NCBI RefSeq assembly: GCF_024502345.1
Contig: NZ_JALDNN010000001.1
Length of the DNA: 64,000 bases
DNA from: Escherichia coli
GTDB lineage: Bacteria > Pseudomonadota > Gammaproteobacteria > Enterobacterales > Enterobacteriaceae
Reading direction: 5' to 3' (one strand)
Below are positions 59,167 through 61,588 of the stretch, one piece after another. Each line of letters begins with the position of its first letter. Position 1 is the stretch's first letter. Under the pieces are notes generated by a model. That model was not told where the DNA came from and made no database searches. It worked only from the letters and a program-made list of their open reading frames with translations. Made by a program: the position numbers and the translations under genes.

Positions 59167-60117
59167 ATGCGTGTGTTACTGGCACCGATGGAGGGAGTGC
59201 TTGACTCTCTGGTGCGTGAATTGCTGACCGAAGTTAACGACTACGATCTGTGCATCACCGAGTTTGTCCGCGTGGTGGATCAACTGCTGCCGGTAAAAGT
59301 CTTTCATCGCATTTGCCCTGAGCTACAAAACGCCAGCCGGACACCATCTGGTACGCTGGTGCGCGTGCAGTTGTTAGGTCAGTTCCCACAATGGCTGGCA
59401 GAGAACGCCGCCCGTGCGGTGGAGTTAGGTTCCTGGGGCGTGGATCTCAATTGCGGCTGCCCGTCGACAACGGTTAACGGTAGCGGCGGCGGGGCGACGT
59501 TACTCAAAGATCCTGAACTCATCTACCAGGGGGCAAAAGCGATGCGTGAAGCTGTACCGGCGCATTTGCCTGTCAGCGTGAAAGTGCGTCTGGGCTGGGA
59601 CAGCGGTGAGAAGAAATTTGAAATCGCCGATGCGGTTCAACAGGCTGGCGCTACGGAGCTGGTGGTGCATGGGCGGACGAAAGAGCAGGGTTACCGCGCG
59701 GAGCATATTGACTGGCAGGCGATTGGCGAGATTCGCCAGCGGCTGAATATTCCGGTGATTGCCAACGGTGAAATCTGGGACTGGCAGAGCGCGCAACAAT
59801 GCATGGCGATCAGCGGCTGCGACGCAGTGATGATTGGTCGCGGGGCGCTCAATATTCCCAACCTGAGCCGGGTGGTAAAATATAACGAACCGCGAATGCC
59901 GTGGCCGGAGGTGGTTGCTTTGCTGCAAAAATATACCCGTCTGGAAAAGCAGGGCGATACCGGGTTATATCACGTAGCGCGGATTAAACAGTGGTTGAGT
60001 TATTTGCGTAAAGAATACGATGAAGCAACAGAATTATTTCAGCATGTTCGGGTGTTGAATAATTCCCATGATATTGCAAGGGCTATTCAGGCAATTGATA
60101 TCGATAAGCTGCGATAA
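59167..60117 (+). CDS. dusC: tRNA-dihydrouridine(16) synthase DusC
   Basis: Product with conserved Dus catalytic Cys (LNCGCP) and TIM-barrel flavin-binding pattern; recognised as DusC/YohI. Confidence 0.9.
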
Positions 60118-60504
60118 TAGTGGAATCGCAGCTTATCAGAGACAATGAATCGCTTATTCAGCTTCATCATCTTGTTGCGCTCCTTTCATGAACTAAGCCA
60201 CATATTGCCACTGGCGCAAGGTGCGCGCAGAGGGAGGACAATCGCCTCCTCCCCCTGCACCCCCGGGCTCTGGCGAACAAAATCGCCGCTGCGCGGTACC
60301 TTCAGCTTATCCCCTTCGGCTACCGGGTCGGGCGCGAGGTAACGTCCTTGTAAGACGCGCCCTCAGCCCACATCCATGTGGGCTGCCCCGGCCTTCGGGG
60401 AACGCTTCAGCGATTTTGACGCCACCAACACCGGAGCTGTTTGCAAATCAAGTACAAAAAATATCTAGTTCCTGACCTGACAACTTATATGCCATATCTG
60501 ATTT

Positions 60505-60588
60505 TTAAAATATCATCTTAAATACGCCAGTCACCACCAGTAGCCCAATCAGGAAAATAATCAATACAGCCCAGAGTATAATTTTCAT
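60505..60588 (-). CDS. yohP: 27-aa small hydrophobic membrane protein (YohP-like)
   Basis: Minus-strand ORF MKIILWAVLIIFLIGLLVVTGVFKMIF, below the ORF-track size cutoff; identification is from memory of the K-12 small protein. Confidence 0.55.
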   Translation of the reverse strand: MKIILWAVLIIFLIGLLVVTGVFKMIF

Positions 60589-60800
60589 TGGCGTTCCTTT
60601 ATTTGTGAGTGCTGAATAAGTATAGGAAAAAACGAAGCCCTTCGCTGTCATTTATAAGTGATTAAGATAAATCGGAGAATATCATTCACTTAGTCTATAT
60701 TTTTCTGGGTATGTCGTTTTATTGCTACTGATGTATTGCCACGCGGGTGATGCTGCCAACTTACTGATTTAGTGTATGATGGTGTTTTTGAGGTGCTCCA

Positions 60801-61076
60801 GTGGCTTCTGTTTCTATCAGCTGTCCCTCCTGTTCAGCTACTGACGGGGTGGTGCGTAACGGCAAAAGCACCGCCGGACATCAGCGCTATCTCTGCTCTC
60901 ACTGCCGTAAAACATGGCAACTGCAGTTCACTTACACCGCTTCTCAACCCGGTACGCACCAGAAAATCATTGATATGGCCATGAATGGCGTTGGATGCCG
61001 GGCAACCGCCCGCATTATGGGCGTTGGCCTCAACACGATTTTCCGCCATTTAAAAAACTCAGGCCGCAGTCGGTAA
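60801..61076 (+). CDS. insA: IS1 InsA (transposition repressor / N-terminal transposase part)
   Basis: 91-aa product [43 protein letters not shown]... Confidence 0.95.
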
Positions 61077-61498
61077 CCTCGCGCATACAGCCGGGCAGTG
61101 ACGTCATCGTCTGCGCGGAAATGGACGAACAGTGGGGATACGTCGGGGCTAAATCGCGCCAGCGCTGGCTGTTTTACGCGTATGACAGGCTCCGGAAGAC
61201 GGTTGTTGCGCACGTATTCGGTGAACGCACTATGGCGACGCTGGGGCGTCTTATGAGCCTGCTGTCACCCTTTGACGTGGTGATATGGATGACGGATGGC
61301 TGGCCGCTGTATGAATCCCGCCTGAAGGGAAAGCTGCACGTAATCAGCAAGCGATATACGCAGCGAATTGAGCGGCATAACCTGAATCTGAGGCAGCACC
61401 TGGCACGGCTGGGACGGAAGTCGCTGTCGTTCTCAAAATCGGTGGAGCTGCATGACAAAGTCATCGGGCATTATCTGAACATAAAACACTATCAATAA
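60995..61498 (+). CDS. insB: IS1 InsB reading frame (expressed as InsAB' by -1 frameshift)
   Basis: 167-aa ORF in the -1 frame relative to insA, recognised as IS1 InsB. Confidence 0.9.
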
Positions 61499-61588
61499 GT
61501 TGGAGTCATTACCTGCCACGCGAAACTAAAAAATATATCGCAACACACGGTAATCTCCGCGCACCGTTTCTTACCTGATTATTCCCCC

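Follow-up and report, generated by a model that had tools for sequence, protein, structure and literature searches.

The interval between dusC and yohP raises the question of what its GC-rich block is, and whether the pronounced structure of this block serves a function. In the 64,000-nucleotide stretch of Escherichia coli DNA analysed here (the window), the block has dusC (59167-60117, plus strand) as its left neighbour and yohP (60505-60588, minus strand, 27 amino acids) as its right neighbour. The high GC content pointed out by the first-pass annotation is real, reaching 0.66 over 60200-60399, whereas most of the intergenic DNA on either side has values of 0.32-0.42. Compared with shuffled sequence, the region also folds stably, with -135 kcal/mol (z = -4.5) for the minus strand and -113.8 kcal/mol (z = -3.5) for the plus strand. 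Two further features were found nearby: a perfect 13-bp inverted repeat, GATAAGCTGCGAT / ATCGCAGCTTATC, lying across the dusC stop codon (60103-60137), and a copy of IS1 between yohP and mdtQ (about 60747-61514, with insA/insB ORFs at 60801-61076 and 60995-61498), which is absent from that place in K-12.

Judged from its position and sequence, the block is the TRIP1c repeat, the same element as RRS-dusC. Window positions 60157-60428 match a K-12 segment between the same flanking genes (L001 5107-5377) with 88% identity over 272 nt in BLAST; the comparison with K-12 proposed by the first-pass annotation thereby returned a homologous element at the same locus, in the opposite orientation. The TRIP1 repeats, TRIP1a-e, were first listed by Rudd (1999) and described by Li et al. 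(2024; PMC10888264), who place TRIP1c at K-12 positions 2229122-2229394, 43-44 bp downstream of yohI, now dusC. This interval corresponds to L001 5123-5395 and overlaps the segment matched by the window. Moreover, the K-12 paralogues that we found independently, one between aqpZ and lysO and one beside putP that lacks 124 nt in its interior, coincide exactly with the published TRIP1a (aqpZ-ybjE, K-12 915016-915281) and TRIP1b (downstream of putP, with a 125-bp internal deletion) (PMC10888264). The Cox laboratory names the two full K-12 copies RRS-lysO and RRS-dusC, for "Replication Risk Sequence", and defines RRS-dusC by a 222-bp deleted region 58-281 bp downstream of dusC (PMC10592627). Carried over through the BLAST match, the equivalent of that deletion would lie at about 60208-60431 of the window, which is nearly the interval first singled out. 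The block had been called unexplained, and its recognition as a known repeat had been named as an observation that would speak against this description. Such a recognition is now at hand: the block is a named repeat with coinciding published K-12 coordinates and an experimentally supported function at the DNA level.

The suggestion that the block might belong to a repeat family other than REP and ERIC was correct, since it is a copy of a dispersed repeat, which differs in sequence from the REP units beside the yegH-asmA copy described below, and from ERIC in length and architecture. The search for the element elsewhere, also suggested by the first-pass annotation, showed that it is repeated within E. 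coli genomes and in other genera. A megablast search with 60150-60480 matched 5425 of the 5426 complete E. coli genomes, at a median of 3 places per genome (range 1 to 10). Three places are detectable by blastn in K-12 MG1655, and besides dusC-yohP the E. coli loci include aqpZ-lysO, putP-efeU (the K-12 copy with the internal deletion) and yegH-asmA. The window itself holds a single copy, recovered on the minus strand at 60271-60424 by our covariance model R1 (172.3 bits, E = 1e-41). Further copies were found in Klebsiella, Citrobacter, Enterobacter, Leclercia, Pluralibacter, Pseudescherichia, Pseudocitrobacter and E. albertii. One Klebsiella chromosome has the repeat in 12 places; in the other genera 3-12 copies are present, at unrelated loci that differ from genus to genus. 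No phage record was found with the element, and a transposase, terminal inverted repeats and a target duplication were looked for and not found. The K-12 putP-efeU interval was considered as an empty site for the target-duplication test and discarded, being actually a deleted copy. We also considered the RSA repeat, the 150/151-bp repeat of the old K-12 GenBank annotation. The length of the conserved core of our element (153-155 nt in all 38 copies compared) would fit, but MG1655 has three blastn-detectable places against six RSA copies, and this mismatch in copy number led us to reject the RSA identity.

Several individual copies deserve mention. The yegH-asmA locus is not among the published TRIP1a-e. 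It holds a divergent copy (L131 1501-1861, L132 1501-1785, L127 8727-9031), about 83% identical to that of the window and with GUGAACG in the stem of hairpin E (see below); a minority of genomes have it at nearly full length, whereas K-12-like strains have a truncated form. Both orientations are found, the entire spacer being flipped between inverted REP units. In Citrobacter, two adjacent copies of different subtypes lie inverted to each other in a BIME-like pairing (L003 1377-1681 and 1710-2014; also in L013, L021, L078 and L095). The core of a Pseudescherichia vulneris copy (L086 3250-3554) contains an insertion of about 77 nt with a third hairpin, GAGCCCCAGGGAUGGGGCGAGC, whose loop is CAGGGAUG. 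Eleven near-identical copies were found in Enterobacter asburiae (L040-L050), with CCCTCTCCC...GGGAGAGGG palindromes on both flanks; several of them lie at contig ends, indicating that the repeat breaks short-read assemblies. The seven copies of Enterobacter sp. ENT03 (L113-L119) have almost identical cores and a strongly different hairpin E loop of about 38 nt, so that this loop, held in a GCGCUCU/AGAGCGC stem, is a hypervariable cassette within a uniform repeat. Finally, the 42-kb E. coli plasmid pZ1323HEC0475-2 carries an hcp-lysO-aqpZ-ybjD chromosomal segment with a mostly deleted TRIP1a copy (L008 1922-2058).

The repeated unit is larger than first reported. The first-pass annotation had delimited it at 60200-60420, but alignments with the K-12 dusC, aqpZ-lysO and putP-efeU copies extend the whole TRIP1c-type unit to about 60155-60466, with a 154-nt core at 60271-60424 (covariance model R1) closed by a long imperfect inverted repeat. 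All parts are described here on the minus strand, which is the G-rich strand and the one presenting ANGGA loops. The closing helix P1 has its 5' arm at 60408-60434, supported by folds, the inverted repeat and covarying pairs in helices 1-2, and its 3' arm at 60263-60291, supported by folds and including a small hairpin, CCGCGCAGCGG, at 60286-60296; in this 3'-arm region, all three pairs of helix 11 are changed on both sides. Inside P1, helices P2 and P3 (60305-60405, arms 60386-60405 and 60305-60328; helices 4-7) make up the junction on which hairpins B and C are displayed. Hairpin B (60364-60385) has the loop C[AUGGAU]G with its hexaloop at 60372-60377 and is supported by an inverted repeat and by covariation, helix 8 showing compensatory changes in four of its five pairs. 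Hairpin C (60330-60362) has the loop C[AAGGAC]G (hexaloop 60344-60349), and its helices 9 and 10 covary. Beyond the core lie hairpin D (60225-60260), formed by GUGCAGGGGGAGGA-GGCGAUUG-UCCUCCCUCUGCGC, and hairpin E (60174-60226), in which a conserved stem of 6-7 bp encloses a variable loop of about 35 nt. Helix 13 of hairpin E covaries, its stem being GCGCUCC/GGAGCGC, GCGCUCU/AGAGCGC or CGUUCAC/GUGAACG depending on the copy.

Seen against this fold, the motifs reported in the first-pass annotation take on a different meaning. The supposed perfect 22-bp palindrome at 60364-60385, CAGCCCACATCCATGTGGGCTG, is hairpin B. It is not a perfect palindrome, because its 10-nt arms flank a non-palindromic CC and its reverse complement differs at two positions; no match to it is expected from shuffles of the window. 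The adjacent CCCCG-CGGGG mini-hairpin, CCCCGGCCTTCGGGG, is indeed at 60386-60400, but it is not a general feature of the element: its pairing is specific to the subtype of the window, and in other copies the same bases pair elsewhere, in the conserved and covarying helices P2 and P3. The GGAGG...CCTCC inverted repeat is likewise present, but had been drawn too short, as its arms measure 12 nt (60227-60238 / 60247-60258) and the structure, a hairpin of 12-14 bp, reaches over 60225-60260.

Evidence that the fold is real comes from comparing copies. We aligned 43 copies in the G-rich orientation, for which RNAalifold gave 51 pairs. Changes on both sides were found in 24 of these pairs, and 97.8% of the cells form standard pairs. 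The covariation score was 0.308 against 0.127 in shuffles, none of 500 reaching the observed value, and it fell to 0.076 or below when the partners were slid by 1-3 columns. All 49 copies evaluated are more stable when the G-rich strand is folded than when its complement is (means -132.5 and -120.8 kcal/mol), a difference that may partly reflect G-richness itself. A comparison of G·U with A·C pairs as an indicator of strand was abandoned, since its outcome depends on the alignment (51 vs 48 with MAFFT, about 49 vs 4 with the RNAalifold structure). Overall, the G-rich strand adopts one common, strongly covarying multi-helix fold in the 43-49 copies compared, which come from about ten genera.

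Hairpin D bears on the published G4 motif (PMC10592627), as its 5' arm holds the G-runs of that motif. The window variant, GGGGGTGCAGGGGGAGGAGG (complement at 60245-60264), keeps the G-runs and has two substitutions relative to the K-12 motif, GGGGGTGCAGGGGGCGGCGG. Around 20 distinct, fully paired stem variants of hairpin D were found across copies, with the start of the loop, GGCG, conserved. Because the arm that pairs with the G-runs covaries with them, we infer that selection acts for the hairpin. On this structural model, hairpin D would sequester the G-runs and compete with a G-quadruplex.

The orientation of the window copy is the point in which it departs most clearly from K-12. The dusC and yohP flanks align to K-12 as reverse complement with 96% identity, whereas the element aligns plus/plus with 88%, so the element lies the other way round with respect to dusC and yohP. 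In junction-specific searches, 2001 genomes proved to have the junction of the window type and 3415 that of K-12, a natural dimorphism of 37:63 in which about 37% of the complete E. coli genomes have the window-type dusC copy. The dimorphism itself is not new, since TRIP1c has already been reported in both directions, in 2952 and 2789 genomes (Li et al., PMC10888264). The two dusC alleles did not arise by a recent flip of one into the other: with 95% identity, the K-12 dusC copy resembles the aqpZ copy more closely than it does the dusC copy of the window (88%), and the dusC-side junctions differ. The rearrangement reached the end of the gene, as the C-terminus of DusC reads ...IDKLR* in the window and ...IEKL* in K-12. 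Boundary inverted repeats, as a signal of site-specific inversion, were not seen at dusC-yohP.

Composition allows the replication strands to be assigned. GC skew on the plus strand of the window is positive in eight of eight 8-kb bins, making it the compositional leading strand, and the strand-biased motifs agree (Chi 11:3 and KOPS 8:0 in favour of plus). With the element inverted, its G-rich minus strand is therefore the leading-strand template. The G-rich strand is the lagging-strand template at both K-12 RRS loci (PMC10592627), an arrangement that the window does not share. The window copy is, in these terms, a natural "inverted RRS".

What this inversion would mean depends on the K-12 experiments. 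There, the G4 motif of the G-rich strand blocks Pol I, II and IV, and once the replisome has passed over an RRS, RecA and SSB occupy the gaps left behind, which measure up to 2 kb (PMC10592627). Deleting both copies was possible only in conjunction with an amplified insH7-insH8 region, global supercoiling changes in response to double deletion or inversion, and engineered inverted copies lose their RecA and SSB peaks (PMC10592627). In K-12, the structured G-rich lagging-strand template blocks the polymerases, a block that the Cox laboratory attributes to a G-quadruplex, and the replisome then leaves single-stranded gaps onto which RecA and SSB load. By analogy with the engineered strains, the window copy probably produces no K-12-type lagging-strand gaps in its own strain, and it may keep an orientation-independent role, such as the one that let those inverted strains grow. 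Taken together, we regard it as very likely that the block is a non-coding TRIP1c/RRS-dusC copy, of an element with a replication-gap role in K-12, which is inverted here with probable loss of K-12-type lagging-strand gaps.

What the copies conserve is the hairpin fold and two loops, suggesting that the active structure is probably more than a G-quadruplex alone. In all 49 copies, from about ten genera, hairpins B and C carry loops of the form C[A-N-G-G-A-Y]G in which only the N and Y positions vary; loop B reads CA[U/G]GGA[U/C]G throughout, and the two GGA motifs are 28 +/- 1 nt apart. The CsrA review names hairpins with ANGGAN hexaloops as high-affinity sites of RsmE, an AC/GU closing stem, and the bridging of two sites 10-63 nt apart by a CsrA dimer (PMC7652899). 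By sequence, the element presents both the hexaloops, of the kind recognised by RsmE and CsrA, and the spacing, and loop C in its K-12 form, UUACAGGGAUGU, agrees with 11 of the 12 positions in the CsrA SELEX consensus, RUACARGGAUGU. CsrA is unmentioned in the TRIP1 paper (PMC10888264), and the part of the RRS preprint available to us makes no mention of CsrA-type loops (PMC10592627).

The Rfam scan suggested by the first-pass annotation gave a single resemblance, to TwoAYGGAY (RF01731), on the same strand and over the full length of the model (28.4 bits, E = 0.046). This score lies below the gathering threshold of 43. A Citrobacter copy scored 25.6 bits, no TwoAYGGAY match was listed for an Enterobacter copy, and the Enterobacter, Citrobacter and metagenome-assembled copies gave only sub-threshold matches in Rfam. 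As for the defining features of that family, the element has helix P1; among 49 copies, 42 show AUGGAY in loop B and only about 12 show AYGGAY in loop C, which mostly reads ARGGAY. TwoAYGGAY shares its clan (CL00106) with RsmW, and its binding to CsrA is a proposal of Gardner and Eldai.

Related hairpins turned up in two other contexts. Selenomonadales/Selenomonadaceae metagenome-assembled genomes (L054-L066, L070-L075, L089-L091) contain a different repeat, present many times per genome, that starts with GGAGCCGUCAUGGAUGACGGCUCC and shares hairpin B, usually followed by a second hairpin with the loop ACAGGAUGU or ACAUGGAUGU; none of 19 of these loci (L054-L066, L070-L075) reaches the Rfam threshold of TwoAYGGAY. 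In addition, weak Rfam matches to Ysr224 (Yersinia sRNA 224) were obtained at L051 1823-1904 and L020 1161-1264. The reverse complement of the Ysr224 consensus contains two ANGGA-loop hairpins, GCGCCAGGGAUGGCGC and UACAUGGAUGUA, and from this consensus the annotated strand of Ysr224 may be the opposite of that of a TwoAYGGAY-like module.

Three other explanations have to be weighed against a role in replication. That the block codes for a small protein, such as the product of the 84-amino-acid ORF at 60221-60475 on the plus strand, is extremely improbable. A stop-free frame does run along the C-rich strand of most copies (median 91 codons), yet long open frames are expected at 65% GC, and the frame shifts inside three copies (L007, L098 and L087). 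Codon position 3 is slightly more variable (entropy 0.70, against 0.54 and 0.52 at positions 1 and 2), but the other two positions vary almost as much and the substitutions are accounted for by base-pair covariation. The first-pass annotation was therefore right in dismissing the overlapping ORFs as spurious, given that the three ORFs searched had no Pfam match, some copies are frameshifted and no coding-type substitution pattern was found, and right also about the ribosome-binding site, none being seen, nor a conserved start codon. A type I toxin or leader peptide starting from the AAGGAG...ATG of the left end was also considered and rejected: the ATG is missing in many copies, and the Shine-Dalgarno-like GGAG is one half of the hairpin E stem, reading GUGAACG in other genera. 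A role as RNA, either instead of or in addition to that in replication, is doubtful but has a real chance. A transcript of the G-rich strand, here continuing from yohP, would offer two ANGGA hairpins to be bridged by one CsrA dimer, and the element would link the transcript that contains it to CsrA, or would act by titrating CsrA, a role proposed for TwoAYGGAY. The sRNA and protein-binding options of the first-pass annotation may thus hold as a second layer, on account of the two CsrA-type loops. The invariance of both loops and of their spacing while the stems covary, the SELEX match of the K-12-type loop C, the hexaloop, closing-stem and bridging properties of CsrA sites (PMC7652899) and the sole Rfam resemblance, to a clan mate of RsmW proposed to bind CsrA, all agree with such a role, and our scan found no terminator-like site between yohP and the element. 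Nevertheless, promoters and terminators scanned over 60050-60750 gave none on the relevant strand and counts not above those of shuffled sequence, and upstream of P1 the family is poorly conserved. No sense bias exists relative to neighbouring genes: all copies lie near the 3' end of a gene, 16 between convergent genes, 5 between divergent genes and, in tandem contexts, 7 in sense and 9 in antisense. Furthermore, dusC, ybjE and efeU show no CsrA peak in the gene table of the K-12 CLIP-seq study, the stem of hairpin B has 9-10 bp where most SELEX ligands have 4 bp or fewer (PMC7652899), and the TwoAYGGAY score stays under its threshold.

The third explanation regards the element as in essence a MITE- or ERIC-type dispersed repeat, selfish or neutral, in which the fold matters only for spread or recombination, copies persist because insertions near gene 3' ends are harmless, and the K-12 replication effects are a by-product of a very stable structure. 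We hold this to be improbable. It would account for the variable copy number (1 to 10 per E. coli genome, up to 12 in one Klebsiella chromosome), the near-identity of copies within one Enterobacter genome, the different loci occupied in different genera, the position near gene 3' ends in whatever orientation, the common internal deletions (L008 and L133 among them), and the fact that identity is higher with a paralogue from another locus (95%) than between the two dusC alleles (88%). It is harder to reconcile with the failure to find a transposase, terminal inverted repeats, a target duplication or carriage by phages, with invariant loops that suggest a trans-acting partner, and with the inability of the Cox laboratory to delete both K-12 copies without a compensating amplification (PMC10592627). 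Some of these observations also weigh on the replication explanation itself. Its mechanism is known from K-12 alone, with the K-12 allele and orientation, and the window copy is two positions away from the K-12 G4 motif and 12% away from the K-12 dusC copy. The 37:63 dimorphism, the internal deletions and the 3-12 copies at unrelated loci in other genera fit poorly with a strict dependence on position and orientation, and the G-runs of the G4 motif form an arm of hairpin D with a covarying partner. Still, the block is already described in the literature as TRIP1c/RRS-dusC, and the DNA-level mechanism of the Cox laboratory is the best supported.

According to a further reading, the TRIP1/RRS repeats may be the enterobacterial counterpart of TwoAYGGAY RNAs, with the folded G-rich strand and its two loops, not the G-quadruplex, as the decisive feature; we think this unlikely. 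The loops would be bound by CsrA as RNA, or by a loop-specific factor on single-stranded DNA. Orientation would then have two consequences: it would place the CsrA-binding face on one of the two convergent transcripts, that of yohP here and that of dusC in K-12, and it would determine which polymerase, that of the lagging or of the leading strand, encounters the structure.

Returning to the replication role as the preferred explanation, the block gains a name, a literature and a role in replication and chromosome topology that has experimental support. The orientation found in about 37% of complete E. coli genomes is the one that abolished gaps when engineered in K-12, and these genomes provide a ready-made natural test of the model of conserved position and orientation. 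To what was already described, our data add a fold backed by covariation between copies of several genera, the two invariant loops of CsrA type and a further divergent locus, yegH-asmA, all of them leads and not demonstrations. The preserved hairpins, including the one that would sequester the G-runs, together with the CsrA-type loops, could refine or revise the G4 mechanism.

Compared with known systems, the window copy shares with the TRIP1 family its locus, sequence family, GC content and predicted "double-Y" RNA fold (PMC10888264); the GC content of 62-65% and the very stable predicted fold of TRIP1/RRS have their counterparts here in a GC of 0.66 and the minus-strand energy given above. 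It differs from K-12 TRIP1c in its opposite orientation and 12% divergence, and the family extends beyond the published TRIP1a-e to more divergent copies, such as that of yegH-asmA, and to copies in at least nine other genera. With RRS-dusC of K-12 it has in common a GC-rich, strongly structured sequence, and its G-rich strand keeps the G-runs of the G4 motif, with two substitutions. Structured extragenic repeats near the 3' ends of genes also include REP/BIME and ERIC (IRU), and REP-type palindromes flank some copies of the element, but our element is about 300 nt long (not about 35 or 127), has a multi-helix structure and occurs in far fewer copies. CsrB, CsrC and RsmW/X/Y/Z resemble it in their ANGGAN-type GGA hexaloops and in having two sites within bridging distance, whereas the repeat has only two sites per unit and no sequence homology to these RNAs. 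In TwoAYGGAY (RF01731; Weinberg 2010), a long closing P1 likewise surrounds two hairpins with A-Y/N-GGA-Y loops; the element described here differs in that its second loop is usually ARGGAY, it has the additional helices P2, P3, D and E, and it is a dispersed genomic repeat of the Enterobacteriaceae.
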